DNA from: a bacterium | GTDB lineage: Bacteria > Fidelibacterota > UBA2242 | Length of the DNA stretch: 53,312 nt | Assembly: GCA_018824205.1 (NCBI GenBank) | Contig: JAHJGX010000162.1 | Span: 1 to 53,312 of the forward strand | Direction of reading: 5' to 3' | In this document: in pieces, positions 518 through 19,958 of the stretch | How the letters are laid out: every line of letters starts with the position of its first letter | Numbering within the stretch: position 1 is the first letter of the stretch | Notes under the pieces: model-generated | The model's database searches: none | What the model saw: only the letters and a program-made list of their open reading frames with translations | Told to the model about the DNA's origin: nothing | Translations under genes and position numbers: made by a program

Positions 518-527
518 GTAATGTGAG

Positions 528-1112: not shown

Positions 1113-1158
1113 ACATTTGTGAGAATTTTGAAAAAGGCGCTATTATTAAAGAGATGTT

Positions 1159-2568
1159 ATGAAGGGGATTAAGAGGAAAAACTTTATTTGTATCAGTCAG
1201 GCACCTGACCAATATGAATTGGATTGTAAAGTGATGCAGATAACGAGACTATACCATGCAGCTAAAAAAGAGGGTGGTTTTGTATTTTTATCCATTGCTA
1301 TCGGTATTACAGTAATTTTAGCATTGCTCACCGTCTTCTTAGCCAATTCTGCTTCTGTGCGTGTCACAGTTACCACGGATTTTATAGAAACGACCCAGAG
1401 CTACTATAATGCAATCTCAGGGATTGAGTATGCAATTGAAAAAATGAAAATCGATTTGCCGTCAGCTGTGGGGACATTTGAGCACGCAAATGGCACTGTA
1501 CAAGTTAATACTTCCACATTTGATTATTATGGAAATCCCTTGACCAGTGGGAAAACAAGGTTTATTTCAACAGGGCGTCATGGACAAACAGAGCGTCTTA
1601 TTGAAATCCTTGTAGAGTACAAGGTGGTTAGCAGCAATCCTCCCTGGGGCCCAATTTCTGTCGTTGATGAAGTGTCATCAGCGGAATTTAAAATCGAAAG
1701 CGAGTTTGCATTAAATGACTCAATTTTTATCGGCAAAAGTGTGGAAGTTGAAGAAACAGTAAGCTTGGGAGATCCGCCGGGAGATCCAACGTGTATCTAT
1801 GTTCCGGAAGGACACACAGTGACCGGATCTTTTGATGAATACTTTACCTGGTCGGAGCATCCGGAACCGCTTCCTGCTTTGCCCGATTTTGATCATACTT
1901 TTTATGACAGCCTTATTAGTATTGCTAATTCGATCACCTCCACCGGTGGTAACAAGTATAATGGTAATTTGACAATCGAGATGGAGTCCTTTGATCTCAG
2001 CCTGTATGAAAACAGTATGTACTTTGTGAAAGGCAAAGTTGTAATAAGTGGTGGTCGTATAACAGGCGGAGATTATTCCGGCAAACCGGGGATTTTAATT
2101 GCATCCAATCAGATTACCTGTAGTGAATATAAACCTGTTAGTCAAGAATCTATTATTGATGACAATATAATTTTTATTGCCGGTAGTGGATTAGAATTTG
2201 ACGATGCTAGTGAGTTCGGGGCGGATTGGTCGTCTATTACCCCCCCGGACCGACCGGCAACGTTTAATGAAGTTTATGCGAGAGGTGTGGTTGAAATTAT
2301 GGATGATGCAGTAGTTTGGGCATTATGCACTTCCTTGAGTGATTTGGTGTTGGGTGGAAAACTTTACGGAGTTGCCCATGCACCTACCACAAGAGTAGAT
2401 TTTATTAAAAGCACGTCTTTTCTTGAGGGCGCACTATTTGCAAAGCAGTTGAATAAAAAAGATATAGCGGAAATTGGTGTAATGAATCTGCATAATATCT
2501 ATCCGGTACAATTTTCTACACAATGTCGGGGATATAGGGTAATAGGGAATACGTGGAGGGAAATTTAG
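1159..2568 (+). CDS. PilX/GspK-like pilus assembly protein with large C-terminal domain (start probably ~1234)
   Basis: EGG^FVFLSIAIGITVILALL hydrophobic helix lacking E5; SYYNAISGIEYA PilX-type motif; follows two pilin genes. Confidence 0.7.
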   Translation: MKGIKRKNFICISQAPDQYELDCKVMQITRLYHAAKKEGGFVFLSIAIGITVILALLTVFLANSASVRVTVTTDFIETTQSYYNAISGIEYAIEKMKIDLPSAVGTFEHANGTVQVNTSTFDYYGNPLTSGKTRFISTGRHGQTERLIEILVEYKVVSSNPPWGPISVVDEVSSAEFKIESEFALNDSIFIGKSVEVEETVSLGDPPGDPTCIYVPEGHTVTGSFDEYFTWSEHPEPLPALPDFDHTFYDSLISIANSITSTGGNKYNGNLTIEMESFDLSLYENSMYFVKGKVVISGGRITGGDYSGKPGILIASNQITCSEYKPVSQESIIDDNIIFIAGSGLEFDDASEFGADWSSITPPDRPATFNEVYARGVVEIMDDAVVWALCTSLSDLVLGGKLYGVAHAPTTRVDFIKSTSFLEGALFAKQLNKKDIAEIGVMNLHNIYPVQFSTQCRGYRVIGNTWREI

Positions 2569-2569
2569 G

Positions 2570-2677
2570 AATGGTTAATGGTAAATGGTTAATGGTTTAT
2601 GGGTTGATAAGTAGTCATTCGGTGGTCATTACGCTTCGCTGTCATTGAATGACCATTGAATGACAACCGAGTGACTA
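2570..2677. repeat. Heptamer tandem repeat (AATGGTT-like x5) followed by imperfect inverted repeat
   Basis: AATGGTT AATGGTA AATGGTT AATGGTT TATGGGT at 2570-2604; TAGTCATTCGGTGGTCATT (2612-2630) pairs with AATGACAACCGAGTGACTA (2659-2677). Confidence 0.8.
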
Positions 2678-2704
2678 TCCGGTTACAAAAAAAAGGAGTT
2701 TGAA

Positions 2705-2914
2705 ATGATTGTAATTTTTCTGGTTATTGGCATAATCGCCCTTGTAGTAGGGATTCTCTTAATGGTGGCGCCAAAATTGTTATTGAGAGCAGGTGAAGTT
2801 CTTAACCGGGTTTTTTCCACGGAAGATGTTTTTTTTTCAAGACGATTGATGTGGGGAATTCTGTTATCAGCGGCTGGTATATACCTGATCTACATGTTTA
2901 TCCGGTTTTACTGA
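2705..2914 (+). CDS. Small membrane protein (two hydrophobic helices)
   Basis: AGGAG RBS; 69 aa with two TM-like segments. Confidence 0.75.
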   Translation: MIVIFLVIGIIALVVGILLMVAPKLLLRAGEVLNRVFSTEDVFFSRRLMWGILLSAAGIYLIYMFIRFY

Positions 2915-3072
2915 TAAAGAGTCGTGGTAAGGCAGAATATTTAAACCTGTCTGCTGTGGGCTCTGATAGAAAATACCATAAAGAGCTTCTATTCCCTTCA
3001 CAGGTAGCGCCTGAAGCCCTGTCACGTTCTCATAAAAACGGCATCTTTGAGGCTCGCTTTAAGAAAAAGTAA
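2915..3072 (+). pseudogene. C-terminal fragment of Hsp20/alpha-crystallin family protein
   Basis: LNLSAVGSDRKYHKELLFPSQVAPEALSRSHKNGIFEARFKKK matches the Hsp20 pattern RKYxKExxLP...YKNGILE; no credible start. Confidence 0.6.
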
Positions 3073-3160
3073 TCAAGAAATGCAAAATGAAATTCTAAAG
3101 AAAATAAAGATTTATCGGATTTTGTATTCAAAAATAGTCGGTTACACGAAACTTTGCACA

Positions 3161-3271
3161 TACCTTGAAAAGGTGAAATTAATGTATCGATGTGGCGAAT
3201 ACCTTGAAAAGGTGAGATCAATGTATCTATGTAAGTCAGAAGTGTTCTTTTTACCTTTTCAAGGTGCAATT
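3161..3271 (+). repeat. Dispersed repeat copy 1 (39-bp unit plus tail; MITE-like inverted ends)
   Basis: TACCTTGAAAAGGTGAAATTAATGTATCGATGTGGCGAA, then TACCTTGAAAAGGTGAGATC...TTACCTTTTCAAGGTGCAATT; nearly identical to 10600-10710. Confidence 0.95.
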
Positions 3272-3339
3272 AGGGAAAATCAGAAGTATGATGCAGATAA
3301 CAGTTTTTAAAAGAATTATTTGTCAACAGGAAAAAGAGT

Positions 3340-4155
3340 ATGGCTGAAAACAATTTTGATCTGCAGCGTCTCCTGGAAAAGATTTATAATGACAGGGGAT
3401 TCGATTTTCGGGAATACAGGGAAACAACCCTGGCCCGTCGTTTAAGAAGGCGCCTTTTTGCCCGGAAGGTTGACACCTACACGGACTATGCAGCAATTTT
3501 AGATTTGAACCCGGATGAGTACGAGAAACTCTTTAACGATCTAACGATCAACGTTTCCAGCTTCTTCCGGGATGCAGAGGTATTCAAAGCCCTGGAAGAA
3601 ACAGTCCTGCCCGCGCTTGTCAATGAAAATTCCAATCCGCTGAGAACGCTACGGATCTGGTGCGCGGGTTGCGCCACCGGTCAGGAACCTTACTCCATTG
3701 CCATCCTTCTGCATGAAATCCCCGGCGCTGAGATCGGGCGCCGCGACATTACGATCCTGGCGACCGATATAGATAACAAAGTGTTACAGCGCGCCCGGGA
3801 AGGCGTCTTTACAGAAAAGGAACTGCAAGATATCCGGCCGGAATATCTGGACCGCTATTTTGTGCCGGCTGATACGGGTTTTTCCGTCCGACCGGAAATC
3901 CGCAAGCCGGTCAATTTCGAGCGCCACGATCTGGTTACCGACCGGTTCCATTGCGATATGGATCTGATTGTCTGTCGCAACGTGCTCATATACTTCAGCT
4001 CTGCGCTGCAGCTGCGGGTGCTTCAGGGATTTCACCAGGCCTTGCAGCCCCGGGGGTTTCTGCTGCTGGGCAAGTCAGAGAGCCTGGCCGGCCGGCAGAA
4101 AGAGTTATTTCAAGCTTTGGACGCTAAGTTAAGATTATACCGGAAAGCGGGGTGA
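3340..4155 (+). CDS. cheR: Protein-glutamate O-methyltransferase CheR
   Basis: LTINVSSFFRD, RIWCAGCATGQEPYSIA, ATDID and CRNVLIYF motifs. Confidence 0.95.
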   Translation: MAENNFDLQRLLEKIYNDRGFDFREYRETTLARRLRRRLFARKVDTYTDYAAILDLNPDEYEKLFNDLTINVSSFFRDAEVFKALEETVLPALVNENSNPLRTLRIWCAGCATGQEPYSIAILLHEIPGAEIGRRDITILATDIDNKVLQRAREGVFTEKELQDIRPEYLDRYFVPADTGFSVRPEIRKPVNFERHDLVTDRFHCDMDLIVCRNVLIYFSSALQLRVLQGFHQALQPRGFLLLGKSESLAGRQKELFQALDAKLRLYRKAG

Positions 4156-4158
4156 GGA

Positions 4159-4290
4159 ATGTTTGGGCTTGAGTTAATAGATGAACAAAGAATCATTGAT
4201 GAAGCTTTACTTGATTCTTTAATGCAAGGGAATGGTGAAATTATAGCTATAACCGATTCATCGATCAAAACATCCCGGAAAATGAAATGA
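4159..4290 (+). CDS. Putative 43-aa small ORF between cheR and cheB
   Basis: MFGLELIDEQRIIDEALLDSLMQGNGEIIAITDSSIKTSRKMK*; fills the gap and overlaps the cheB start as ATGA. Confidence 0.4.
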   Translation: MFGLELIDEQRIIDEALLDSLMQGNGEIIAITDSSIKTSRKMK

Positions 4291-4901
4291 AATCTGAAAT
4301 CCAATCCGGCAGCCGCCGGACGCAAACAGGACATGTTATTGTCATCGGCGCCTCAGCCGGCGGAATCGACGCCCTTAAACAGGTTCTTGAACGTCTGCCG
4401 GCCGATTTGCCGGCGGCGGTAATCATTGTTCAGCACCTGAGCCCTTCCAAACCAACCCAACTGCATGAGTATCTGGATAAAATCTCCCCGCTGCGGGTTT
4501 ATCTGGCAGAGGACGGCGCGCCTATAAAAGATGGCGCCGCGTATCTCGCAGTGCCGGGACAGCATCTCAAGGTGGCGGAAAAACGCCTGGTCCTGAATAT
4601 GGATGAACCTGAGAATTACGTGCGTCCGGCCGTCGATGTCCTTTTCACGTCGGCGGCAGAATCCTTTGGATCCAAAACTGTCGGGGTCGTGCTGACCGGA
4701 ACCGGTCGTGACGGAGCGCGTGGCTGCCGGCAGATTAAAGCTAAAGGCGGCGCGACTATCGCGCAGGATGAAAAGACTTCGCGCAATTTCGGTATGCCGA
4801 AGGCGGCTATAGAAACGGGCGCTGTCGATTTTGTGCTGCCGCTGGAAAAGATCGCGGATAAAATTATTGAACTGGTATTCTATAAACGATCTGTTTCATA
4901 A
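4287..4901 (+). CDS. cheB: Protein-glutamate methylesterase CheB, catalytic domain only
   Basis: GASAGG, VQHL and LTGTGRDG supply the Ser-His-Asp triad; no receiver domain. Confidence 0.95.
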   Translation: MKSEIQSGSRRTQTGHVIVIGASAGGIDALKQVLERLPADLPAAVIIVQHLSPSKPTQLHEYLDKISPLRVYLAEDGAPIKDGAAYLAVPGQHLKVAEKRLVLNMDEPENYVRPAVDVLFTSAAESFGSKTVGVVLTGTGRDGARGCRQIKAKGGATIAQDEKTSRNFGMPKAAIETGAVDFVLPLEKIADKIIELVFYKRSVS

Positions 4902-4926
4902 ACCCAAAAATAAGAAGGAGAAGATT

Positions 4927-6762
4927 ATGAGACAAATACAAACAATTCGCTACGCACGGGGAGCCGGGGATCTGAATGCCCGCTGCACAACAAGTATCGA
5001 GGCTTTGAACAGGATGATTCAGCCCCGCACTACCCGGAACATCAAACGCGGTCATACATCCAAAGGAGTCAGGGATATCAATCGGATAGGCTGGGGAGCC
5101 TGGGAGGAGAAAGTAGCGAACACACTGCGCGTGATCGATACACAAGCCTATGATCGCGCCAACAGTTTTTACAGCGCCATGGACAAAACGCAGGAATTAT
5201 TCGGTGAAGTTCGCAAGCGGGAAGGGGAATTGCAAGTTGCCAATGAGGAAATGGAAGCCAATAATGAAGAACTGCAGGCTTCTAATGAGGAAATGGAAGC
5301 AAGCAACGAAGAGCTGCAGAATTTAACGGAAGAACTCGAACAGACCAGCGCCTACCAGAAGTCTCTCATGGATTCCAACCCGGATATTATTATGACGACC
5401 GATCCTTCCGGGATTGTTACGGATGTTAATATGGCAACGGAAAGAATCAGCGGCTACAGCAGAGAAAAGCTGATCGGGCAGCCCTTCGGGCAGTTTTTCA
5501 GCGACCCCGGCTTCGCCCAGACCGGCATTGAGCAGGTGATCCGGGAAGGCAGGGTCAGCAACTACGAACTGACCGTAGTCACCCAAAAGGGACGGCAAGT
5601 GCCGGTCTCATATAATGCCACCGCGCTGCGGGACCCCGACGGCCGCATCACCGGTGTGCTGGGCAACGCCCGGGACGTCACCAGCAGCAAACAGCTGGAG
5701 GAGGAATTGCGCAAATCTACGGCCTATACGCGCAGTCTTATCGAAGCCAATTTTGATTCCCTGGTCACCATCAGTCCCGAAGGCAAGATTACCGATGTCA
5801 ACGAGTCCACGGTCAAGTTGACCGGCGTGTCCCGCGAACAACTAATCGGCACCGATTTCTGCGACTATTTCACCGAACCGGAAAAAGCCCGGGAGGGATA
5901 CCAGCAAGTGTTGTCGAAAGACTCTATCATGAACTACCAGCTTACTATCAACAATAAAAGTAAACAAGAATTGGTCCCGGTTTTATATAACGCTTCCGTG
6001 TACCGGGACGAAGCGGGCAATGTCCAGGGTGTTTTTGCCGCCGCCCGTGATATCACCATTCTCAACGAAACGATGGCGGAACTCGGGCGGTCTAATCTGG
6101 AACTCGAGCAATTCGCCTATTTTGCTTCGCATGACCTGCAGGAGCCTCTGCGCATGGTAGTCAGTTACCTGCAGTTACTGGAACGACGCTACAAAGGTAA
6201 GATCGATTCCGACGCCGACGAGTTTATTGCCTATGCCGTTGACGGCGCAAACCGAATGGGGCAGTTGATCAATGATCTGCTGAAGTTTTCCCGGGTGGGC
6301 ACTGAATCAAAACCGTTTGAGTCAACCGATTGCACGGCTGTTATCGACAAGGTTCTTGCCAATCTGGAGGCCGCAGTCAAGGAAAGCGGCGCAGTAGTAA
6401 CTCACGATCCTCTTCCGGTTATTATGTCCGATGATGTGCAGTTGAACGAGTTATTCCAGAACTTAATCAGTAACGCCATCAAGTTCCGCGGCGAGCCGCC
6501 GCCGCACGTTCATATCTCGGCGAAGCAGGCGGAAAGTGAATGGATTTTTTCCGTCCGCGACGACGGCATCGGCATCGACCCGCTGTATAAGGATAAAATC
6601 TTTGTGATCTTTCAGCGCCTGCAGGACAAAGATTACCCCGGAACCGGCATTGGTCTGGCCGTATGCAAGAAGATTGTAGAATACCATGGCGGCCGGATAT
6701 GGGTGGAGTCGGAGCACGGAAAAGGCGCGACGTTTTACTTTACGATTCCGGTAAAGGAGTGA
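4927..6762 (+). CDS. Cytoplasmic histidine kinase: unknown N-terminus, EE-rich coiled coil, 2 PAS, Cph1-type HisKA/HATPase
   Basis: AAGGAG RBS before ATG 4927; (ELQxxNEE)n heptads; two PAS/PAC ending RDVT/RDIT; ASHDLQEPLR H-box; NLISNAIKF, DDGIGI, GTGIGL. Confidence 0.93.
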   Translation: MRQIQTIRYARGAGDLNARCTTSIEALNRMIQPRTTRNIKRGHTSKGVRDINRIGWGAWEEKVANTLRVIDTQAYDRANSFYSAMDKTQELFGEVRKREGELQVANEEMEANNEELQASNEEMEASNEELQNLTEELEQTSAYQKSLMDSNPDIIMTTDPSGIVTDVNMATERISGYSREKLIGQPFGQFFSDPGFAQTGIEQVIREGRVSNYELTVVTQKGRQVPVSYNATALRDPDGRITGVLGNARDVTSSKQLEEELRKSTAYTRSLIEANFDSLVTISPEGKITDVNESTVKLTGVSREQLIGTDFCDYFTEPEKAREGYQQVLSKDSIMNYQLTINNKSKQELVPVLYNASVYRDEAGNVQGVFAAARDITILNETMAELGRSNLELEQFAYFASHDLQEPLRMVVSYLQLLERRYKGKIDSDADEFIAYAVDGANRMGQLINDLLKFSRVGTESKPFESTDCTAVIDKVLANLEAAVKESGAVVTHDPLPVIMSDDVQLNELFQNLISNAIKFRGEPPPHVHISAKQAESEWIFSVRDDGIGIDPLYKDKIFVIFQRLQDKDYPGTGIGLAVCKKIVEYHGGRIWVESEHGKGATFYFTIPVKE

Positions 6763-6807
6763 TACGAATGCGAAATAAACAATTCAAAATTTTTAACAAA
6801 AAGGAGT

Positions 6808-7269
6808 GTGAATATGAATCAAAAACCTACGTCTGTTGATGATAATTCTATTGAGATTTTGCTGGTAGAGGACAATCCCGGCGATGTACGCCTGTTGCGG
6901 GAAGGGCTCAAGGAGGGTAAGGTACGCAACAGACTGAATGTGGTCGGGGATGGAGTAGAGGCTATGCTCTTCCTGCGCCGTGAGGGCGAGTACATTGATG
7001 CGCCTCGTCCGGACCTTATCCTGCTGGACCTGAACCCGCCGAAGAAAAACGGCCGTCAAGTTCTGGAGGAAATAAAAGCAGACAGCAACCTGAGGCGCAT
7101 CCCGGTGGTCATCCTGACCACCTCAAAAGCCGAAGCGGACATTATTAAAACCTATGACCTGCACGCAAACTGTTACATCGTCAAACCGGTTAATTTGGAA
7201 CGGTTCATCGAGATAGTACAAACCATCGAAAATTTCTGGATGACCATCGTGAAACTGCCGCCGGCGTGA
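6808..7269 (+). CDS. Rcp1-like single-domain response regulator
   Basis: [28 protein letters not shown] and C-terminal FWMTIVKLP typical of the Rcp1 group. Confidence 0.92.
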
Positions 7270-7340
7270 CCTTTGGAAAGGTATCGGGAAAATGAGCGGG
7301 CGATGGCAGTGAGCAATGTTAGTAACCCGAGGGGAAAGTT

Positions 7341-8204
7341 ATGAGAGACTTAACAAAGTCCGACAAGATCAGGGTTTTGTTGATCGAGGACAATCCCGGG
7401 GACGCCCGGCTGATCAAGGAGGCGCTGTCCGAAGCAGGCGACATGCAGTTTGAGCTGGAGTGGATCGATCGGTTGACGCCCGGGCTGGAACGCCTGGCAA
7501 CCGGAGAGTTCGATGTGATTCTGCTGGATCTGAATCTGCCGGACAGACCCTTTCACGGACTTGAGACCCTGCGAGAGGTTCGCGGCAAAGCGCCGGACAT
7601 GCCGATCGTGGTGCTAACCGGTTTAAATGATGAAAAAACCGGGCTCGGCGCAATTAAAGCAGGCGCCCAGGATTACCTGGTCAAGGATCAGTTGAATTCC
7701 GAACTACTGTTACGCACTCTTCGCTATGCGATTGAGCGTTATCACCTACACTTAGAACGCATCAAGTATGAAAGACAGCAAGAACAGGAACTGAACGACT
7801 TCAGGAAAATGACGCAGACTTCCACTACCATTACATCCAGGAGTTTTGGACTGGGGCCGCTGAAAGAATCACAGCCGACTATTTTTCATGAATTCGTATC
7901 CTCATTTGAAACATTTCTGGATAAAGCGATCGAAAAACGCGTTTATCAGGCGGACCATGATCTTTCAACGGAACTGCGGACAATGTCTGAAAAATTAGGT
8001 TTTATCAAAGCCGGTCCCCGGGACGTGATTGATATTTTTGTCACTGCCCTTGATAATAAATCAAAGGATGCAAATACGGAAAAAATCAAAGCATTCATGG
8101 AAGAGGGACGTATTTTAGTGATTCAGCTGATGGGTCATCTGATTTCATTTTACCGAAACTACTACGTTCAATATCAAAATATTTCAAAGTCGAACACAAC
8201 ATAA
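7341..8204 (+). CDS. kaiA3: KaiA3-like protein (receiver domain plus KaiA-like C-terminal helical domain)
   Basis: Intact REC ([19 protein letters not shown]). C-terminal [15 protein letters not shown]...[18 protein letters not shown] resembles the KaiA C-terminal motif. Directly upstream of kaiB-kaiC. Confidence 0.8.
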
Positions 8205-8218
8205 GATGGGAGAGAAAA

Positions 8219-8506
8219 ATGGGCAAGCACACACTCAAATTGTATGTCACCGGTCAAACTCCACGGTCGCAACGGGCGATTGCCAATATCAGGGAAATCT
8301 GCGAAAAGGAGACTGATGGTGAATACGAATTAATCGTCATTGATGTATTAGAGAATCCGCAACTCGCGGAAGATGAAAAGATTATCGCCACACCGACACT
8401 GGTCAAGTTTCTACCGCCGCCTCTGCGCCGGATTATCGGTGATCTGTCCAATCAGGAAAAAGTATTGCTTGGGTTGGATTTATTCCCAAATAAAAAAAAT
8501 AGATAA
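8219..8506 (+). CDS. kaiB: Circadian clock protein KaiB (KaiB3-like)
   Basis: [47 protein letters not shown]. Confidence 0.97.
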
Positions 8507-8523
8507 CCGGAAGGATAATTGTT

Positions 8524-10035
8524 ATGGAACCGAAAGAACAAATAAATACGATGATTAAACTGGAAACAGGGATTCCAGGCTTTGATTTTATTTCTCATGG
8601 CGGACTTCCGATGGGTCGAACAACCCTGGTTGCCGGTACTTCCGGCAGCGCAAAAACCGTTTTTGCAACACAATATTTAGCGGAAGGCATTATCCAATTT
8701 GATGATTCGGTCGTTTTCGTCACTTTTGAAGAATCACCGAAAGACATTCGTAGAAATATGATCGGATTTGGCTGGGATATTCAGAAATGGGAAGACGAAG
8801 GGAAATGGACCTTTGTGGATGTGTCGCCGGAACCGGGAATGGAAGTTCTGGAAAGCGGGTCCTATGACCTGGGCGCTTTATTAGCCCGGATCGAGCACGC
8901 CATCAATAAAGTCAATGCCAAACGATTATCCATGGATTCGATTGGCGCCATTTTCAGCCAGATAACCGACAGCAGTATCGTCCGTTCGGAACTGTTCCGG
9001 ATCGTTTATGCCCTGAAAGAATTGGGAGTAACTGCTATCCTGACCGCGGAAAGGACCCAGGAGTACGGTGATATAGCCCGGTATGGCGTTGAAGAATTTG
9101 TCACTGATAATGTCATTGTTGTACGAAATGTACTGGAGCAGGAAAAACGGCGCCGGACTATCGAAATTCTGAAATTCCGGGGAACAATGCATCAGAAAGG
9201 CGAATACCCGTTTACGATTATTCCTGGTGAAGGAATTATCATTATTCCCTTATCCGCTATCGAATTGAAACAGAAATCTTCCACCCTCCGAATTTCATCC
9301 GGGAATGCTGAAATGGATAAAATGTGTGGCGGCGGTTTTTTTCGGGATTCGATTATTCTGATATCCGGCGCGACCGGCAACGGCAAGACCCTGATGGTGA
9401 CTGAATTCATCAATGGCGGCGCTAAAAATAAGGAACGCTGCCTGTTATTTGCCTTTGAAGAAGGCCGTGAACAATTACTCCGTAATGCCAGCGGCTGGGG
9501 AGTCGATTATGAAAAATTGGAAGAAGAAAATAGATTGAAAATAGTCGCTGTCTATCCGGAAGTTGCCGGGCTCGAGGATCACCTGATTACCATGAAAAAG
9601 GAAATTGATAAATTTAAACCCACCCGGGTGGCGATCGATAGCCTCTCGGCGCTGGAACGGATATCTTCTATCAGAGGGTTCCGGGAATTCGTGATTGGTT
9701 TGACCTCCTTTATTAAACACAAAGAAGTTGTGGGCTTATTTACGGCCACTACGCCCACCCTGTTGGGTGGAACATCTGTGACAGAGGCTCATATTTCGAC
9801 AATCACAGATTCGATTATATTACTGCGTTATGTGGAGATGTTTGGTGAAATGCACCGGGGCATCACGGTTCTGAAAATGCGCGGTTCGATGCACGACAAG
9901 GATATCCGTGAATACACCATTGACGGCACCGGGATGCATATTGGCAAACCGTTCCGCAATATCAGTGGTATTCTGTCCGGTAATCCGATGATCAGTACAG
10001 CTTCTGAAGTAGATCGAATCAAGGATCTTTTTTAA
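8524..10035 (+). CDS. kaiC: Circadian clock protein KaiC (KaiC3-like, double-domain)
   Basis: Walker A GTSGSAKT and GATGNGKT; EE pairs (TFEES, AFEEG); phosphosite segment HISTITD; KFRG/KMRG; short tail GILSGNP...SEVDRIKDLF. Confidence 0.97.
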   Translation: MEPKEQINTMIKLETGIPGFDFISHGGLPMGRTTLVAGTSGSAKTVFATQYLAEGIIQFDDSVVFVTFEESPKDIRRNMIGFGWDIQKWEDEGKWTFVDVSPEPGMEVLESGSYDLGALLARIEHAINKVNAKRLSMDSIGAIFSQITDSSIVRSELFRIVYALKELGVTAILTAERTQEYGDIARYGVEEFVTDNVIVVRNVLEQEKRRRTIEILKFRGTMHQKGEYPFTIIPGEGIIIIPLSAIELKQKSSTLRISSGNAEMDKMCGGGFFRDSIILISGATGNGKTLMVTEFINGGAKNKERCLLFAFEEGREQLLRNASGWGVDYEKLEEENRLKIVAVYPEVAGLEDHLITMKKEIDKFKPTRVAIDSLSALERISSIRGFREFVIGLTSFIKHKEVVGLFTATTPTLLGGTSVTEAHISTITDSIILLRYVEMFGEMHRGITVLKMRGSMHDKDIREYTIDGTGMHIGKPFRNISGILSGNPMISTASEVDRIKDLF

Positions 10036-10100
10036 TCTGATTTTAATCCATAAAAAAGATGGTTTTCAGATCATTAAATCATCCCTTATTCGGAGGATAA

Positions 10101-10568
10101 ATGACTAAAGAAATAAAATCAGAGCGGCAAAATATAAAAATTGTACTGATCGAAGACAGCACCAGTGACGCCCGGATTATCTATGAATTACTGGAAGATA
10201 ACAAAAGCGTTGATTATACGATCAAATGGCATACGACCCTGGCAGCGGGTCTGGATCACTTAAAAACTTCAGAATGTGATATTATTTTCTCGGATATGCA
10301 TCTTCCCGATGCCGCCGGACTGCATATTGTTGAGATGATTTATCACTCGCATCCGAACATTCCGATCATTGCATTGTCCAGAATCTATGATAAAGATACT
10401 GAATGGCAATCGAAAAACCTGGGAGCACAGGATTTTTTGCTGAAAGACGGACTTGACGGTATTTTATTAACCAAAGTGATCAAATATGCTATTGACCGGT
10501 GCCGGAGGGAATATGAACTCCGAAAATCCCGGGAATCTCTTCAAAAGATTGTGTGGCGAATACCTTGA
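10101..10568 (+). CDS. Response regulator receiver protein, probably 3'-truncated by the repeat element
   Basis: REC (IEDS, FSDMHLPD, FLLK), then linker ELRKSRESLQKIV running into the 39-bp repeat. Confidence 0.8.
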   Translation: MTKEIKSERQNIKIVLIEDSTSDARIIYELLEDNKSVDYTIKWHTTLAAGLDHLKTSECDIIFSDMHLPDAAGLHIVEMIYHSHPNIPIIALSRIYDKDTEWQSKNLGAQDFLLKDGLDGILLTKVIKYAIDRCRREYELRKSRESLQKIVWRIP

Positions 10569-10711
10569 AAAGGTGAAATTAATGTATCGATGTGGCGAAT
10601 ACCTTGAAAAGGTGAAATTAATGTATCGATGTGGCGAATACCTTGAAAAGGTGAGATCAATGTATCTATGTAAGTCAGAAGTGTTCTTTTCACCTTTTCA
10701 AGGTGCAATTA
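10552..10711 (+). repeat. Dispersed repeat copy 2 (two tandem 39-bp units plus tail)
   Basis: Units start at 10561 and 10600; the tail from 10639 ends TTTCACCTTTTCAAGGTGCAATT; same orientation as copy 1. Confidence 0.95.
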
Positions 10712-10753
10712 ATTCAAGGTGCGTAACTTGAAAAAAATGAAACGTGAGGTTCT

Positions 10754-12958
10754 GTGATGATAACAAAATTTGATATACAAAGAGAAAAAAACAAAATTCT
10801 GATAATGGCGACACTTTTAGTTATCTGTTGTTTTTTAACCTATTATTTTCACGTGGTATTAAAAAGCGGCACGGTTTTTACTCACTTCTTTTATATTCCG
10901 ATTATCCTGGCGTCGGTCTGGTGGCAAAGAAAAGGCCTGGCTGTGGCTGTGTTTTTAGCGGTATGGCTGCTTCTAAGTCACTTCTTATTTCGAGTCGGCT
11001 TGGAGACAATCAATGATTTAATTCGTGCGCCCATGTTTATCGCTGTTTCCCTGGTGGCTGCTCTTTTAAGTGAGAAACTTGGGAAGGCGGAAGGAGGCCT
11101 GCGGGAGACCCGCGATTATTTAGATAAATTGATCACCTATGCAAACGCCCCCATTATCGTCTGGAACCCTGATTTCAGGATTACACGGTTCAACAAAGCC
11201 TTCGAGCGACTTACCGGCTATGCATCCGGCGAGGTTATCGGCAAAGAACTGCGCCTGCTTTTCCCTGAAATAAGCCGGAATGAGTCCCTGGGCAGGATCG
11301 AGCAAACAGCGGGCGGTGAATTTTTGAAATCGGTGGAAATACCAATTCTTCGAAAAGATGGGGACGCCCGGCTGGCGCTATGGAACTCGGCAAATATTTA
11401 CGCGGAGGACGGCAAGACTCTTGTGTCTACTATCGCGCAAGGCATCGATATCACCGAGCGTAAACTATCTGAAAAAGCTATTGCGGCGTCGAAAGCTTAT
11501 GCTGAATCCATCATACGGAACTTCTTAGACACACTCATCGTGGTTGATCCCGAAGCAAAAATAGAGACCGTGAACCCGGCGACCTGTGATTTATTGGGCT
11601 ATACCGAAGAAGAGCTCCTCGGTCAGCCCGTAAGTATTATTTTTGCAGCAGCAGCAGCAGAAGAAGTTCTTCGCTTTTTCCAATTTTTCCTAGAACCCAA
11701 TAAAGCAGAAGCATTCGACCCACAAAATACCGTTCGCAATCGTGAACTCAATTACAAAACCAAAGATGGGCGACTCATTCAAATGTCATTTAACGCCAGT
11801 GTGCTGACCGATGAAGCGGGCAATATCACGGGTGTAGTTGCGGGAGCCAAAGATATTACAGATATAAAGCGTGCAGAAGCAACAATAAAAAAAGAGAGGA
11901 ATTTCTCAAAAAACATAATAACTACCGTCCCGGAGTCCTTACTCGTTGTTGATAAGGATTTAAGGATAAAGAGTGCCAATCGTTCATTTTATGAAACATT
12001 TAAAATTGAACCGGAAAATACGATCGGCGCTTCCATAACCGATATATTAGGGAATGACAAAGGAAAACTCAGCGCTGAACTTAAAAGGCTATTTGGAACT
12101 GAAGATATGCTGGAGAATTACGAGTTACACTATAAGTCAGAAAAAATAGATTCACCCCGTGAAGCACGAGAACTTACTTCACAGTGTGAACGGATATTCA
12201 ATGTAACCGCGCGAAGAATAATAATTGTAGAAGAAGAAGAAGAAGAAGAAGAAGAAGAAGAAGAACTGGTTGTACTGAGAGACATCACTGAGCGCAAGCG
12301 GGCGCAGGAGCAAATCGAGGCATCGCTCAGCGAGAATGATGTGCTTTTGAGGGAAATTCACCATAGGGTTAAAAACAACCTCCAGGTTATTTCCAGCATA
12401 CTTGATATGTGCAGGATGCGAACCCATGACCAGCAGGCTATAGATTTGTTCACAGATGTCCGGGACAAAATCCATACCATGGCTCTTATCCATTCGCAAC
12501 TCTATCGAAGCAATAGAGTTGCTCAAGTAAACATAGGAAACCATGTCCGGGAGATGGTTGACTATCTGTCGAAAGTTTATGTAACAAATGCAAAATTGAT
12601 TACCCCTGTTATTGAATACTCTGACATTTACCTTTCTGTAATCCAGGCTATCCCCTGTATTCTTGCCTTACACGAGATTATTTCCAACGCCTTCAAACAT
12701 GCCTTCAAGGAGGACAAAGGGACCATTAAAATATTCATAAAGAGGTTGGATGATGACACAGTTTTTATAAGAATTAAAGATGACGGTATTGGTATCCCAG
12801 AAGAAATTGACATTTATAAAACCAACAGCCTGGGTCTAAAGTTACTCAGAAGTCTGGTTCAGAAACAGCTAAAGGGGAAAATACAGATTAATCGAAATAA
12901 GGGTACAGAGTTTATTGTAGAATTTAAAATCTTAGAATGTAAAGAAAAATATGTGTAG
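10754..12958 (+). CDS. Membrane sensor histidine kinase, 3 PAS plus HisKA_2-type kinase
   Basis: About four N-terminal TM helices; three PAS ending DITERK/DITDIK; EIHHRVKNNLQ; EIISNAFKHAF, DDGIGI, SLGLKL. Confidence 0.93.
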   Translation: MMITKFDIQREKNKILIMATLLVICCFLTYYFHVVLKSGTVFTHFFYIPIILASVWWQRKGLAVAVFLAVWLLLSHFLFRVGLETINDLIRAPMFIAVSLVAALLSEKLGKAEGGLRETRDYLDKLITYANAPIIVWNPDFRITRFNKAFERLTGYASGEVIGKELRLLFPEISRNESLGRIEQTAGGEFLKSVEIPILRKDGDARLALWNSANIYAEDGKTLVSTIAQGIDITERKLSEKAIAASKAYAESIIRNFLDTLIVVDPEAKIETVNPATCDLLGYTEEELLGQPVSIIFAAAAAEEVLRFFQFFLEPNKAEAFDPQNTVRNRELNYKTKDGRLIQMSFNASVLTDEAGNITGVVAGAKDITDIKRAEATIKKERNFSKNIITTVPESLLVVDKDLRIKSANRSFYETFKIEPENTIGASITDILGNDKGKLSAELKRLFGTEDMLENYELHYKSEKIDSPREARELTSQCERIFNVTARRIIIVEEEEEEEEEEEELVVLRDITERKRAQEQIEASLSENDVLLREIHHRVKNNLQVISSILDMCRMRTHDQQAIDLFTDVRDKIHTMALIHSQLYRSNRVAQVNIGNHVREMVDYLSKVYVTNAKLITPVIEYSDIYLSVIQAIPCILALHEIISNAFKHAFKEDKGTIKIFIKRLDDDTVFIRIKDDGIGIPEEIDIYKTNSLGLKLLRSLVQKQLKGKIQINRNKGTEFIVEFKILECKEKYV
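11645..11659 (+). repeat. In-frame (GCA)5 microsatellite
   Basis: Encodes AAAAA within the second PAS domain. Confidence 0.9.
12151..12190. repeat. REP-like palindrome within coding sequence
   Basis: TTCACCCCGTGAAG-N12-CTTCACAGTGTGAA; arms match at 12 of 14 positions. Confidence 0.7.
12230..12265 (+). repeat. In-frame (GAA)12 microsatellite
   Basis: 12 perfect GAA codons giving poly-Glu12. Confidence 0.98.
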
Positions 12959-14540
12959 AATAATTATTGTTGACGATGAGGTGATCATAATAACGCAATT
13001 GGAGGAACACCTTGTATCTATGGGATATGAAGTCCTCGGGAGTGCCACTTCCGGAGAAGAAGCCATAGACTTAGCCAGGCGCCTCAGGCCCGATATAATC
13101 CTGATGGATATAGTTATGCCGGGAAAATTAGACGGTATTGATGCTTCCGAAAGGATTAAAGCTGAACTGAATATTCCGGTTATATTCCTGACCGCTTATG
13201 CGGATGATAAATTCGTAAATAGAGCAAAGAATACTGAACCTTTCGGATATATACTAAAACCGTTTCAAGAAAAAGAAATAAAAGCGGCTATTGAAATCGC
13301 CATTTACAAAAAAAGTATAGAGCAACAGTTGCGTGAGTCGGAAGAGAAATATCGGTCCCTGGTAAATACAGCTAACGATGCCATCATCTCTGTTGACAGC
13401 CGCGGAAACATCGTTTTCTGGAACTCTGCGGCAGAGAAATTTTTTGGCTATCCAGCTGATGAAACAATTGGCAAGCCGGTTACCGTCATCATACCCGAAC
13501 GGTTCCGTGAAGTTCATCAAAAGGAAATGATGAGGGTAGTTTCAACGGAAAAATCAAACATTATCGGAAAAACGGTTGAGATAACTGGGCTCAGAAAAGA
13601 TGCCAGCGAATTTCCTCTAGAGATTTCATTTGCATCCTGGAAGACAAGGGAGGGTGTTTTCTTTACAAGTATCGTACGCGACATTACCGAGCGCAAGCAG
13701 GCAGAGGAAGCCTTAAAGGTCAGCCAGGAAAGTTTCCACAATATAGTGGAAAAAAACACAGCCGGAATTATCGTTACAGACAGGAAAGGGATAATACGTT
13801 TTGTAAATCCTGCCGTAGAAGACATTTTTAACCGCAAGTCTGAAGAACTTGTGGGTGATTTGTTTGGTTTTACAGTGATAGAGGGTGAAGTAACTAATAT
13901 TGATATTATCCGCAAGGGTAACGATATGGGCATCGGGGAAATACGTAATACGGTGACAGAATGGGATGGTGAATTTGCCTATCTTATTATGATTAACGAT
14001 ATTACCAAGCGCCAGCAGGCCGAAGAGGCTCTACGGCAGAGTAAAGATTACATTAACAATATAATAAGTTCAATGATCGAAAGCCTTATTGTCACTAACC
14101 GGGATGGCATTATTAAAAAAGTCAACAGAGCCACCTGGGAGCTTTTTGGCTATGAAGAAAAAGAATTCATTGGTAAACCTATAAGTATGCTTTTTGCAGC
14201 AGAAGAATTCAAAACTTTAGGAATTGATGAGATTCTTAAGAAAGGCTTTATCCGAAATGTAGAGAGGGTCTATCTTTCAAAAGATGGTAGAATTATTCCT
14301 ATACTTTTTTCGGGTTCGGTAATGCGTGATATTGATAAGAATATTCAGGGGATAGTCTGTTTAGCTGAAGATATCACCGAGCGTAAGAAGGCAGAGGATG
14401 AATTGAAAAAACATATGCATGAGCTGGAGCGGTTTGAACATGTTACTATTGGAAGGGAATTGAAAATGATTGAATTGAAAAATAAAATAAAAGAATTAGA
14501 GGAGCAGAGGAAGATGGAAAAAGTTAATGATGAAACGTGA
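12951..14540 (+). CDS. REC-PAS-PAS-PAS protein with C-terminal coiled coil, no catalytic output
   Basis: IVDDE, LMDIVM, GYILKPF; three PAS; ends GRELKMIELKNKIKELEE. Confidence 0.9.
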   Translation: MCRIIIVDDEVIIITQLEEHLVSMGYEVLGSATSGEEAIDLARRLRPDIILMDIVMPGKLDGIDASERIKAELNIPVIFLTAYADDKFVNRAKNTEPFGYILKPFQEKEIKAAIEIAIYKKSIEQQLRESEEKYRSLVNTANDAIISVDSRGNIVFWNSAAEKFFGYPADETIGKPVTVIIPERFREVHQKEMMRVVSTEKSNIIGKTVEITGLRKDASEFPLEISFASWKTREGVFFTSIVRDITERKQAEEALKVSQESFHNIVEKNTAGIIVTDRKGIIRFVNPAVEDIFNRKSEELVGDLFGFTVIEGEVTNIDIIRKGNDMGIGEIRNTVTEWDGEFAYLIMINDITKRQQAEEALRQSKDYINNIISSMIESLIVTNRDGIIKKVNRATWELFGYEEKEFIGKPISMLFAAEEFKTLGIDEILKKGFIRNVERVYLSKDGRIIPILFSGSVMRDIDKNIQGIVCLAEDITERKKAEDELKKHMHELERFEHVTIGRELKMIELKNKIKELEEQRKMEKVNDET

Positions 14541-14623
14541 GACGTGAGAAGTGAACTATTAATTTTGGTACTCCCGGCAAAGTCAGGATCGGGGAAATTT
14601 AGGCAATTAAATATGGTTGATGG

Positions 14624-16249
14624 TTGATGGTAAAAGAAAAAATTATGGTTGTTGAAGATAACCGCCCCGTAGCAGAGTTCATCCAGGATACATTAAGAAG
14701 TTCGGGATATGATGTTTCGGATATTGTCTCTTCCGGTGAAGAAGCCGTAAAAAAAGCGGAACAGCTGTCCCCGGATCTCGTGTTAATGGATATCATTTTA
14801 GAAGGGAAGATGGATGGTATAGAAGCATCAAAACAAATACGTGACCGTTTCAATATCCCTGTCATTTACCTTACCGGACATGCAGAAGAAAATTTATTAC
14901 AAAGGGCTAAGATAACAGAGCCATTTGGGTATATATTAAAGCCATTTGAAGGAAAAGAATTACATACAACCATTAAAATGGCTATTTACAAGCATAAGAA
15001 AGATAATGAATTGAAAAAGCGCATGCTTGAGTTGCAGGACTCTCGTACAGCTATGCTAAATGTTCTTGAAGATGTGACTGAAGCCCGTGAAGCCCTTGAG
15101 AAATCCGACCGGTTAAAGAATGTTTTCATAGGCATGATGTCTCATGAGTTAAGAACACCCCTGAATGTAATATTGGGATATGTCGATATATTATCTACGG
15201 ATTTGAGAAGCTTAGTTAATGAAGAGAGGCGAGAAATGTTTGACGCAATCGTCCGGGGTGGTGAACGGCTAAAAAAATTAGTTGACGATATTATGGATAT
15301 ATCTCAGATTGAAGCCGACCAGATGAAATTATATATGCAACCCATTGAGGCGGATGATCTGGTTAAAAATTGTGTCAATGAAATTGTAATTCCTGCGAGA
15401 AATAAGAGCTTAGATATCATTGAAAAATATCATGGGGACAAGACGCACATCAAAGTTGACAGGCTTCGCTTTCCCCAGGCTCTTGGAAATATTTTACAGA
15501 ATGCTGTGAAATATACCAATAAAGGCAGTATCAATATAACTACAGAAGTAGAGAATAATATTTATACTATTACTGTAAAAGATACCGGAAAAGGTATTAA
15601 AAAGGATTTTCTGCCATTTATTTTTGCGCTCTTCCGTCAAGAAGATGAAGGTTATAAACGTAAATATGAAGGCGCTGGATTAGGTTTATATGTAAGTCAA
15701 CGATTGTTTACATCAATGGGAGGGAAAATAGATGTGGATAGCGATGAAGGCCGAGGAACTGAATTTGTACTTTCCTTTCCCGCTTCTACGGAAAAAGTTC
15801 TTATAGTAGAAGAGGAAAAACCGGAATTGCCAGATGTTAAGAGACATGAAGAAGTAAAAAAAGAGGTAGAGAGAAAACAAACCGTGCTGGTATTAGAAGA
15901 CAATCCGGCTAATGTTGATTACATACAATTTTTATTAAGGAAATTGCAAGTGGACTATGTTACGGCAGCTTCCGGAAAGGATGCGCTTGAATGTTTAGAA
16001 GAAAATTCCGTTGATGGGATGCTAATTGATATTAGTCTTGCTACCGGGATGTCGGGAGTTGAATTTTTAGAGAGGGTGAAAACGCAAGATCGTTTCAAGA
16101 ATATACCCAAGATTGCAGTCACAGCTCATGCAATGAAAGGTCAGCGTGAGGAGTTTATTAAGACCGGTTTTGATGATTATTTACCAAAACCGTTTAAATT
16201 GAAGGACCTTCGGGAATTACTTGCCCGCACTTTAAAGGGTTATTCATAA
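14624..16249 (+). CDS. Hybrid histidine kinase REC-HisKA-HATPase-REC
   Basis: MSHELRTPLN, NILQNAVKYT, DTGKGI, GAGLGL; receiver domains at both ends. Confidence 0.93.
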   Translation: MMVKEKIMVVEDNRPVAEFIQDTLRSSGYDVSDIVSSGEEAVKKAEQLSPDLVLMDIILEGKMDGIEASKQIRDRFNIPVIYLTGHAEENLLQRAKITEPFGYILKPFEGKELHTTIKMAIYKHKKDNELKKRMLELQDSRTAMLNVLEDVTEAREALEKSDRLKNVFIGMMSHELRTPLNVILGYVDILSTDLRSLVNEERREMFDAIVRGGERLKKLVDDIMDISQIEADQMKLYMQPIEADDLVKNCVNEIVIPARNKSLDIIEKYHGDKTHIKVDRLRFPQALGNILQNAVKYTNKGSINITTEVENNIYTITVKDTGKGIKKDFLPFIFALFRQEDEGYKRKYEGAGLGLYVSQRLFTSMGGKIDVDSDEGRGTEFVLSFPASTEKVLIVEEEKPELPDVKRHEEVKKEVERKQTVLVLEDNPANVDYIQFLLRKLQVDYVTAASGKDALECLEENSVDGMLIDISLATGMSGVEFLERVKTQDRFKNIPKIAVTAHAMKGQREEFIKTGFDDYLPKPFKLKDLRELLARTLKGYS

Positions 16250-16319
16250 AGTGGTTATACCGCAAAGACACTGAGGCGCAAAGATACTAAAACACAGAGG
16301 GCGTTTCCCAAAATGTAAT

Positions 16320-16453
16320 AGTTCACCCCCGACCTGTCGGGGCAGAGACACAAAGAAAATTTGATATTTGATATTTGAAATTTGGTAAATACCATGACCT
16401 GTCGGGGTTGTAATAAATAATAAAAATTCTCTGCGGCGTCTTAGCGGTGAACT
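16320..16453. repeat. Imperfect inverted-repeat element with nested palindrome and heptamer repeats
   Basis: AGTTCACC...GGTGAACT ends; CCCCGACCTGTCGGGG inside the left arm; TTTGATA TTTGATA TTTGAAA TTTGGTA heptamers. Confidence 0.65.
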
Positions 16454-19947: not shown

Positions 19948-19958
19948 GGTTTTATCCT

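Follow-up and report, generated by a model that had tools for sequence, protein, structure and literature searches.

We analysed a 53,312-nucleotide stretch of bacterial DNA (hereafter the window) and found that its positions 7341-10035 probably encode a protein phosphorylation timer of the KaiA3-KaiB3-KaiC3 type in a non-phototrophic, T9SS-bearing host, in which a histidine kinase and a receiver encoded upstream would set the activator. This interval contains three packed open reading frames, all on the forward strand: a gene for a receiver fused to a helical domain (kaiA3-like; 7341-8204), kaiB (8219-8506), and a gene for a double-domain KaiC (8524-10035), separated by gaps of 14 and 17 nt. 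A sequence-only reading of this DNA had described a complete kaiA3-kaiB-kaiC3-like cluster with all three parts of an oscillator; the three frames were recovered as described, and the KaiA3 type of the first one was backed by synteny, fold, sequence, and the clade of the adjacent KaiC. Scores of the KaiB, KaiC, and receiver families in the window were far beyond chance. To our knowledge, KaiA3B3C3 is the only Kai system besides the canonical one for which oscillation in vitro has been observed, and the published non-cyanobacterial hosts that we know of are a handful of genera, mostly phototrophic.

The kaiA3-like gene codes for a protein of 287 amino acids. Residues 12-123 matched the Pfam Response_reg family (E 7.9e-20), and beyond this domain no Pfam match was obtained at E ≤ 0.01. 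The residues of a true receiver were read from the sequence (E16-D17, D63, T93, and K115), including the phospho-acceptor aspartate that characterizes the N-terminal receiver of KaiA3, unlike the pseudo-receiver of the canonical S. elongatus KaiA. The AF2 model of the full-length protein (pLDDT 93.3) showed a five-strand receiver fold, a long linker helix (residues 120-159), and a four-helix bundle (residues 179-285, approximately), and the bundle was again predicted with confidence when the C-terminal domain was modelled alone (pLDDT 91.5). The 18-residue string by which the sequence-only reading had recognized the helical domain fused to the receiver was located at residues 255-272.

Comparison of the predicted bundle with solved structures, proposed in that reading as a check, returned the C-terminal domains of KaiA as best matches. 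In Foldseek searches these occupied nine of the ten top rows (probability 0.96-1.0), with E-values all 0.07 or worse, and by VIA the domain aligned to KaiA chain 1r5q_A over 90 of 91 residues (Z 10.7, rmsd 2.4) and to further KaiA chains 5c5e_A (Z 10.3) and 5jwr_E (Z 10.1). The first VIA row was the stressosome N-terminal domain 3zta_A (Z 10.8) and the next unrelated row had a Z of 8.5; values below about 13 are commonplace among helical bundles. At the sequence level, hhalign comparison with five canonical KaiA C-terminal domains gave an alignment of 91 columns (E 8.1e-4, probability 24%), reproducing the register of the KaiA consensus given in the sequence-only reading. The match to Pfam KaiA (PF07688) was 14.2 bits (E 0.05), under the gathering cut-off of 22.2, as was the case for cyanobacterial KaiA3 genes (17.2 and 19.5 bits). 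A genome of the same genus, G010, encodes a REC-KaiA protein that does pass this cut-off (29 bits vs. 22.2), and the window protein matched it with E 9e-45 as a whole and 6e-10 for the C-terminal domains alone. Searches of PDB sequences with the full protein retrieved receiver domains only, the full-length family profile likewise found receiver domains and no KaiA, and the sole rows found with the C-terminal domain profile were two radial-spoke proteins (E 0.07-0.12), with no KaiA. An Atlas search found KaiA-bearing clusters only at 0.80-0.83, and was taken as a lead only.

Relatives of the C-terminal domain were collected by an exhaustive search, used instead of a word-index search that returned five proteins only. 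The family comprised 1454 representatives at E ≤ 1e-3, and of 72 members scanned, 59 carried REC on the N-terminal side. Species-representative genomes contained 430 pattern matches, of which 387 were relatives of the domain. Among the best 80 of these 387, kaiB was directly downstream in 78 loci and kaiC was present in 55, and the kaiB-adjacent loci spanned at least five phyla; the 12 Microcystis loci within these 80 were all devoid of kaiC, and such an absence beside KaiA3 has been reported for M. aeruginosa (PMC11372060). Proteins from Crocosphaera, Microcystis, Cyanothece, and Roseiflexus were among the relatives, at identities of 38-50% and E-values ranging from 1e-33 to 1e-44; the same paper names or implies these taxa as KaiA3 carriers. 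The window gene shares the arrangement expected for KaiA3, directly upstream of kaiB and followed by kaiC. These four independent lines (family and synteny, fold, sequence, and KaiC clade) support the assignment of its C-terminal domain to the KaiA3 type.

The kaiC product (503 amino acids) scored 727.1 bits against NF006799 (cut-off 408) and 665.4 bits against TIGR02655 (cut-off 546.25). It retains the features of circadian-type KaiC proteins: two RecA-like ATPase domains with Walker A motifs (P-loops GTSGSAKT in CI and GATGNGKT in CII), catalytic EE pairs at 69-70 and 312-313, and adjacent Ser/Thr phosphosites within HISTITD. These phosphosites, S425 and T426, aligned with residues 431 and 432 of the solved Synechococcus and Thermosynechococcus chains (offset +6), and T420 is present as well. 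The protein stops at residue 503 without a long C-terminal extension, and its short A-loop tail, also pointed out from the sequence alone, ends in LF and is conserved within the clade, E495 and F503 being invariant in 22 sequences. Identity was 66-77% to KaiA3-linked KaiCs (the nearest, apart from the G010 copy at 94%, being those of Anaerolineae at 75-77%) and 55-58% to KaiC1. In a quick IQ-TREE phylogeny of 60 rows, the window KaiC was placed inside a clade of 53 KaiA3-linked rows (SH-aLRT 97), separate from KaiC1 (100); since Synechocystis Sll0485 and KaiC3 were not among the sequences compared, these clades are defined by KaiA3 linkage. The proposal that GSAKT marks KaiC3 held as a tendency (29 of the 53 KaiA3-linked rows, window included), the other rows having GSSKT or GSGKT, with one gapped at the site; all five KaiC1 rows had GTGKT. 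The score against the solved S. elongatus chain was 617.8 bits. Against a chain of the PDB 8dba family, which we take to be the Rhodobacter KaiBC hourglass of KaiC2 type, it was just 313.5 bits. The window system resembles that KaiA-independent hourglass in being a KaiB and KaiC timer outside cyanobacteria, and differs from it in the length of KaiC (503 vs. 568 amino acids) and in the KaiA-type gene alongside.

The kaiB product (95 amino acids) matched Pfam KaiB (E 2e-30) and NCBIfam NF006798 (124.9 bits, cut-off 110), and scored 118 bits against TIGR02654, under its cut-off of 145.3. It is a full-length domain that keeps the GLDL segment noted earlier, at residues 85-88 (G85, D87), and from its sequence it would be a KaiB of the fold-switching type, as in the canonical S. 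elongatus system; the acidic tail of KaiB1 is missing. Its identity was 85% to the copy in G010, 59-72% to ten KaiA3-linked KaiBs of other phyla, and 58% to five KaiB1 proteins, so that it is barely nearer to cyanobacterial KaiB3 (59-62%) than to KaiB1.

The host was found in groundwater metagenomes, a habitat in which a daily cue is not obvious. Its genome contains 96 T9SS sorting domains, and neither canonical KaiA, a second canonical KaiABC system, the reaction-centre genes looked for, nor dsrA was found in it; the sole KaiB-domain match was kaiB, with no SasA-like KaiB-domain kinase. The host RpoB was 64% identical to that of a genome of the same phylum and 49-59% identical, in partly aligned pieces, to those of named Thermodesulfobacteriota, Planctomycetota, Elusimicrobiota, Chloroflexota, and two cyanobacteria-like MAGs. 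The host is therefore non-cyanobacterial, as had been suspected, and is probably a non-phototrophic, T9SS-bearing groundwater bacterium of the FCB group. The gene was carried by one of 40 relatives, and this patchy presence in the host lineage suggests that the Kai block was probably acquired horizontally. The full three-gene set was found in lineages without known phototrophy (Anaerolineae, Dehalococcoidales, Thermodesulfobacteriota, Planctomycetota, Elusimicrobiota, and this host), and such carriers bear on the question of time-keeping in non-photosynthetic bacteria. The novelty implied for a cluster outside cyanobacteria is weakened, since KaiA3B3C3 clusters beyond cyanobacteria had already been published (Koebler et al., 2024; PMC11372060). 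As described there, the Synechocystis sp. PCC 6803 system shares with the window the gene order kaiA3-kaiB-kaiC, an activator composed of a receiver with a phospho-acceptor Asp and a KaiA-like four-helix domain, and a KaiC with adjacent Ser/Thr phosphosites and no long extension. Unlike it, the window cluster belongs to a groundwater host with a T9SS secretome, stands alone, has an activator domain just 38-50% identical to those of the named relatives, and is preceded by a conserved PAS kinase and receiver.

This upstream pair consists of a PAS-PAS-HisKA-HATPase histidine kinase (4831-6762, forward strand; the listed start is TTG and the true start may be further downstream) and REC1, a stand-alone receiver of 153 amino acids (6808-7269, forward strand) that adjoins the kaiA3-like gene. 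The kinase core was 62% identical to that at locus L057, 51% to L016, and 64-65% to L008 and L009, and a similar core was present at 12 of 24 named non-cyanobacterial loci vs. none of 52 cyanobacterial ones. REC1 showed 72% identity to the receiver encoded before kaiA3 at L057, with lower values at L062 (67%), L016 (65%), L014 (56%), and L084 (49%), and a REC1-like neighbour occurred at nine of the same 24 loci vs. none of the 52. Roughly half of the non-cyanobacterial loci lacked the pair, and contig ends truncate some of these. That such a kinase and receiver are retained next to the cluster in different non-cyanobacterial phyla, with up to 72% identity, is a new observation. According to Koebler et al. 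(PMC11372060), the kinase acting on KaiA3 had yet to be identified, and the kinase at 4831-6762 is a candidate for this role, a concrete one that is testable with purified proteins. A broader proposal, which we regard as tentative and rather doubtful, is that KaiA3 systems have their missing two-component partners in the kinase and REC1, which form with the kai genes a five-gene cassette that moves between phyla. By phosphorylating the KaiA3 receiver, these partners would gate or entrain the KaiABC-type oscillator; if so, the cue in aphotic groundwater would be other than light. Downstream of kaiC lies REC2 (10101-10568, forward strand), a second stand-alone receiver of 155 amino acids, 66% identical to the N-terminus of a REC-PAS gene that sits downstream of kaiC in G010.

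In the proposed mechanism, KaiC would be a double-ring ATPase that autophosphorylates at S425/T426. The dimeric four-helix domain of the activator would bind the short KaiC tail and the A-loop, promoting phosphorylation; KaiB would then bind phosphorylated KaiC and withdraw the activator, allowing KaiC to dephosphorylate. The PAS kinase and REC1 would most likely tune the activator by phosphotransfer to D63 of its receiver, tying the timer to a sensed cue. A predicted complex of two C-terminal domains (residues 28-153 of the domain profile A2) with KaiC residues 460-503 gave weak support, scoring 0.54 (runs 0.62, 0.54, and 0.35), vs. 0.03 for the best of three controls; contacts agreed between runs to at least 55%, with a partner pLDDT of at least 44. 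In the calibration of this procedure, 58 of 80 solved complexes and two of 110 mismatched pairs passed the mark, scores of 0.60 or less accounting for only seven of the 80 solved complexes and for both passing mismatches. Since a similar complex has been solved (5c5e), the pass may reflect memorization by the predictor, and we give this result no weight as evidence.

The same parts could also work without a self-sustained clock, serving as an hourglass or a switch driven by signals (such as a regulator of stress or metabolic state), with KaiC phosphorylation simply tracking whatever state the two-component pair upstream is in. We lean against this reading while giving it real weight: the host has no detected reaction-centre genes and comes from groundwater, the activator receiver is phosphorylatable, the cluster is set among kinases and receivers, and PMC11372060 cites roles in stress for the KaiBC homologs of Legionella and Pseudomonas. 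The oscillation in vitro reported for the Synechocystis and Cyanothece KaiA3B3C3 systems (PMC11372060; PMC12081879) argues against it, as do the retention in the window KaiC of all the catalytic and phosphosite residues checked and its lack of the C-terminal extension found in KaiA-independent, KaiC2-type hourglass proteins.

The remaining two alternatives concern the identity of the activator and the origin of the contig, and both appear very improbable. The C-terminal domain might be a partner-switching helical domain of the RsbU_N/RsbR type, acting on a target other than KaiC and lying near kaiBC incidentally. Besides the stressosome match heading the VIA rows, this would fit the RsbR N-terminal domain 2bnl_A (Z 8.4), weak Pfam RsbU_N matches in two of 21 and two of 72 family members, and the third atlas cluster, which is RsbU_N. 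However, weak KaiA matches were commoner (five of 21 members), hhalign matched the last helix to that of KaiA, the bundle is common to KaiA and RsbU_N according to PMC11372060, and incidental proximity is difficult to reconcile with kaiB being next in nearly all of the best 80 loci, across phyla. As for the contig, mis-binning of a cluster from Chloroflexota or another genome of the same sample could explain the Anaerolineae affinity of KaiC, the presence of the gene in a single relative, and the GC content of 50-54% in the segment from cheR to REC1. This segment starts with cheR (3340-4155, NCBIfam CheR) and a cheB methylesterase-domain gene (4287-4901, Pfam CheB_methylest, E 6.5e-65), both on the forward strand and with 52-54% GC. 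Against this, the GC content of the whole window equals the genome average (42.3%), the orthologous block of G010, corresponding to window positions 7654-10540, is 82% identical at the DNA level with 94% identity in KaiC, and contigs of three other studies match 3607-10507 with zero differences. In addition, the 39-nt REP-like repeat on either side of the block has its only other occurrence in the genome on contig C212, which bears a gene with a T9SS tail. Four other genomes of the genus shared with window positions 1-20000 one short piece of DNA and nothing else.

Promoter and terminator scans of the window gave no more than the level of shuffled sequences. Contigs from RNA libraries matched 8026-8207 and 8399-8638 at full identity, and RNA libraries can contain DNA. 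The flanking repeats comprise the left copy of a 113-nt direct repeat made of 39-nt units (3160-3272) and a right array with 3.1 tandem units (10552-10711), of which 10599-10711 is 99% identical to the left copy. A read joint from 3231 to 10557 that skips 7325 nt (X6 and X8) was considered as a deletion of the cassette and rejected: position 3231 shares its repeat register with 10670, and the joint has the same CAA insert as the 10670-to-10557 joint in X5, indicating variation in the copy number of the 39-nt array and not a cassette-less variant. The copy number of the right array differs between public runs.

Three genes transcribed from the same strand were found at 7341–10035, coding for proteins of 287, 95 and 503 amino acids and separated by gaps of 14 and 17 nt. 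The third (8524–10035) encodes a full double-domain KaiC (NF006799, 727.1 bits, cut-off 408; TIGR02655, 665.4 bits, cut-off 546.25), and the second (8219–8506) a KaiB (Pfam, E 2e-30; NCBIfam NF006798, 124.9 bits, cut-off 110; TIGR02654, 118 bits, under the cut-off of 145.3). The first (7341–8204) encodes a protein with a receiver domain at residues 12–123 (Pfam, E 7.9e-20), whose otherwise unassigned C-terminal half, scanned alone, matched only Pfam KaiA, at 14.2 bits (E 0.05), below the 22.2 cut-off. All motifs quoted in an earlier sequence-only reading were present in these proteins, and S425/T426 of KaiC corresponded to positions 431/432 in solved chains of this protein (offset +6).

An exhaustive phmmer search of 1.84 billion representatives, using the C-terminal 153 residues of the first protein as query, retrieved 1454 proteins at E<=1e-3, of which 1054 reached E<=1e-10, the match being always C-terminal among the 150 matches listed. 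A full-length alignment of this protein and 71 of 153 relatives, chosen for a length of about 270–330 residues (72 members), contained a receiver domain in 59 members and PAS domains in some. A second alignment joined its C-domain to 20 short, mostly C-domain-only proteins; 5 of these 21 members gave weak Pfam KaiA matches (best E 0.0038) and two matched RsbU_N. Scanning the latter alignment against one genome per species gave 430 pattern matches, from which 387 relatives were confirmed and the best 80 analysed. According to record titles, these 80 included 52 Cyanobacteriota (Crocosphaera watsonii WH 8501, Microcystis, Cyanothece, Aphanothece and others), 21 Chloroflexota (Chloroflexaceae, Roseiflexus, Anaerolineae, Dehalococcoidales) and one each of Thermodesulfobacteriota, Planctomycetota and Elusimicrobiota. 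In 78 of the best 80 loci kaiB lay directly 3' of the C-domain gene, the exceptions being L080, where the contig end interrupts, and L087; kaiC was also present in 55. Adjacent kaiC was absent from all 12 Microcystis loci, which agrees with the exception of the same kind reported for M. aeruginosa by Koebler et al. (PMC11372060). In two of five cyanobacterial genomes searched (those of loci L018 and L025), the KaiA3-linked genes also scored below the Pfam KaiA cut-off (17.2 and 19.5 bits), canonical KaiA scoring about 215 bits in all five, so the low score of the window protein is the norm for KaiA3.

The AF2 model of the C-domain reached a pLDDT of 91.5, and the full-length model (pLDDT 93.3, pTM 0.80) comprised a five-strand receiver, a long helix (120–159) and a four-helix bundle (179–285). 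KaiA C-domain chains occupied nine of the ten top Foldseek rows against the PDB (5jwr, 1q6a, 1v2z, 5n8y, 1r8j; probability 0.96–1.0, TM by target up to 0.64), with E-values all of 0.068–0.30 and none <=0.001. In VIA-align (48,161 chains), where helical bundles commonly give Z below about 13, the stressosome N-domain 3zta_A (Z 10.8) stood slightly above KaiA 1r5q_A (Z 10.7, rmsd 2.4, 90 of 91 residues aligned); 5c5e_A (Z 10.3) and 5jwr_E (Z 10.1), also KaiA, preceded a row at Z 8.5. The KaiA-type helical bundle expected by the sequence-only reading was confidently modelled, with KaiA prominent among its structural neighbours. Comparison by hhalign with five canonical KaiA C-domains, from cyanobacterial genomes also carrying KaiA3, gave E 8.1e-4 at 24% probability over 91 columns, and paired a 21-residue segment with LDYRLVLIDILAHLAEMYRRS, in the register of the KaiA consensus given by the sequence-only reading. 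A second REC-KaiA protein in a same-genus genome (G010) exceeded the Pfam KaiA cut-off (29 bits) and shared 34% identity with the window protein (E 9e-45; C-domains only, E 6e-10). By synteny, modelled fold and sequence combined, the first gene is assigned to the KaiA3 family and, together with KaiB and double-domain KaiC, bears out the claim that all three oscillator parts are present.

The window KaiC was 66–77% identical to KaiA3-linked KaiCs and 55–58% to KaiC1 of the same cyanobacteria, encoded beside canonical kaiA-kaiB. A quick IQ-TREE phylogeny was built from 60 rows: the window KaiC, 52 of 55 KaiA3-linked KaiCs (the truncated L017, L052 and L068 sequences were excluded), the upstream KaiC of L052, five KaiC1 and one distant outgroup. 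The window KaiC fell within the 53-row KaiA3-linked clade (SH-aLRT 97), as sister to an Anaerolineales sequence (93); cyanobacterial KaiC3 formed a nested clade (100) and KaiC1 a separate one (100), in accordance with the KaiC3-type assignment proposed earlier. Its best solved match was 8zn5 (743.9 bits), described in PMC12081879 as reconstructed ancestor KaiC-beta. The CI Walker A is GTSGSAKT; within the clade, 29 of 53 rows shared GSAKT, and all five KaiC1 had GTGKT. The short KaiC tail is clade-conserved: across 22 sequences E495 and F503 do not vary, and R498 and L502 hardly do. KaiB retains GLDL and is without the acidic tail of KaiB1. Its identity was 59–72% with KaiA3-linked KaiBs of other phyla, 85% with the G010 copy and 58% with KaiB1, and the two types are therefore not distinguishable by KaiB alone.

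The G010 genome contains two tandem Kai clusters (contig C42, 8178–13583, minus strand): one for a 281-aa REC-KaiA (Pfam KaiA, 29 bits), a divergent 98-aa KaiB (43% identical to the window KaiB) and a 509-aa KaiC, and then the ortholog of kaiA3-kaiB-kaiC, the only one in the window genome. At L052 (1610–3476, Anaerolineae), an extra kaiB (45% identity) and kaiC (56–57%) lie directly 5' of the kaiA3 cluster, this KaiC branching outside both the KaiC1 and KaiA3-linked clades.

The host genome (3.89 Mb, 275 contigs, 94% complete, 42.3% GC) carries single copies of kaiB and kaiC; searches of it for canonical KaiA, Photo_RC, PsaA/PsaB and dsrA found none. The T9SS C-terminal sorting domain gave 96 matches above cut-off in it and none in 14 control genomes. 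As T9SS is not known outside the Fibrobacteres-Chlorobi-Bacteroidetes (FCB) group, we infer an FCB-group host. Host RpoB was 64% identical to that of a same-phylum genome and 49–59% to those of named carriers in five other phyla; these data together upheld the suggestion of a non-cyanobacterial host. Many of the 96 domains end ORFs of >1000 aa; for a groundwater organism with a genome of 3.9 Mb, this secreted or surface proteome is very large. A KaiA3-type domain was found in one of 40 relatives (genus 1/6, family 0/18, order 0/12, phylum 0/4) and in two of a further 400 genomes from a phylum sample; GC was 50–54% from cheR to the upstream receiver gene and 44–47% in the kai genes. Patchy occurrence, the KaiC position beside Chloroflexota and raised GC, taken together, point to horizontal acquisition of the cluster.

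An assembly artefact was ruled out as the origin of this arrangement, since contigs of public run X5 were identical to 3607–6403, 6415–9192 and 9196–10507 (zero differences) and runs X6 and X8 agreed; near-identical DNA occurred in groundwater metagenomes from several studies. Groundwater metatranscriptome contigs were identical to 8026–8207 (kaiA3 end) and 8399–8638 (across the kaiB-kaiC junction), a mere hint of transcription, because DNA can occur in RNA libraries.

Upstream of kaiA3, on the same strand, lie cheR (3340–4155), a cheB-domain gene (4287–4901), a PAS-PAS histidine kinase gene (4831–6762) and a stand-alone receiver gene (REC1, 6808–7269); downstream of kaiC are a second receiver gene (10101–10568) and then further PAS kinases. 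Of 84 flanking ORFs from 25 loci, 50 were scanned: kaiA3 was preceded by a gene for a kinase, receiver or Hpt protein in 11 of 14 non-cyanobacterial loci having upstream sequence and in none of six cyanobacterial loci. REC1 was 72, 67 and 65% identical to receivers upstream of kaiA3 in Dehalococcoidales, Anaerolineaceae and Thermodesulfobacteriota MAGs, and 56 and 49% to those of Chloroflexaceae and another Anaerolineae locus; the kinase core was 51–65% identical to relatives at other kaiA3 loci. At fixed thresholds, 9 of 24 taxon-assigned non-cyanobacterial loci (several of which lose upstream sequence) had a REC1-like gene and 12 a kinase-core relative, each being found in 0 of 52 cyanobacterial loci. 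REC1, a stand-alone receiver as well conserved between phyla as KaiB and KaiC are, is best explained as a working partner of the Kai system, and the kinase is a candidate KaiA3 kinase.

With the gene set, its fold, family and linkage shown, and the catalytic and phospho-acceptor residues seen to be conserved, a mechanism may be sketched by analogy with the KaiABC/KaiA3B3C3 literature. The C-domain dimer of the KaiA3-like protein would bind the KaiC tail and promote KaiC autophosphorylation, and KaiB would antagonise this promotion. Judging from linkage, the kinase might phosphorylate REC1, the activator (at D63) or both, which would make the timer responsive to a cue sensed through PAS domains.

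Loci of this type have been described before: syntenic KaiA3B3C3 sets are published from five genera outside cyanobacteria (PMC11372060). Titles and abstract openings of the KaiA3 literature did not treat non-phototrophs, groundwater or flanking kinases; likewise, nothing relevant appeared in the record excerpts retrieved for kaiA/kaiC with groundwater, Anaerolineae, Ignavibacteria or non-photosynthetic hosts. The leads added here are a wider, largely non-phototrophic distribution of KaiA3 clusters and the conserved kinase-receiver pair.

Several other features were observed. The cheB-domain ORF overlaps the kinase ORF, as listed with a TTG start, by 71 nt in a different frame; translation of the kinase probably begins further downstream, or both ORFs derive from a former single CheB-PAS-kinase gene. 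In a membrane PAS-PAS-PAS HisKA_2 kinase (10754–12958), 13 consecutive glutamates (EEEEEEEEEEEEE) follow the last PAS domain and precede the kinase core. Two copies, 99% identical, of a 113-nt direct repeat made of 39-nt units with a small hairpin (ACCTT..AAGGT) flank the block from cheR to the second receiver gene (3160–3272 and 10552–10711), unit copy number at 10552–10671 differing among public runs. Elsewhere in the genome the unit occurs only on contig C212 (near 1300–1450, 4180–4310, 7320–7530, 10920–11080 and 11660–11740), in the gaps between genes for PAS/GAF signalling proteins and to either side of an IS200-like Y1 transposase, and it looks like a REP/RAYT system. In a 1242-aa ORF (49102–52830), four stretches match TrpX, a substrate-binding protein of tryptophan ABC transport (574 bits), and the ORF looks like a tandem fusion of four copies. 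Finally, at 19959–23351 (minus strand), two adjoining D-alanine--D-alanine ligase-family genes, both below equivalog cut-offs, adjoin a lysine/glutamate 2,3-aminomutase-family radical SAM gene, with which they may form a beta-amino-acid peptide pathway.
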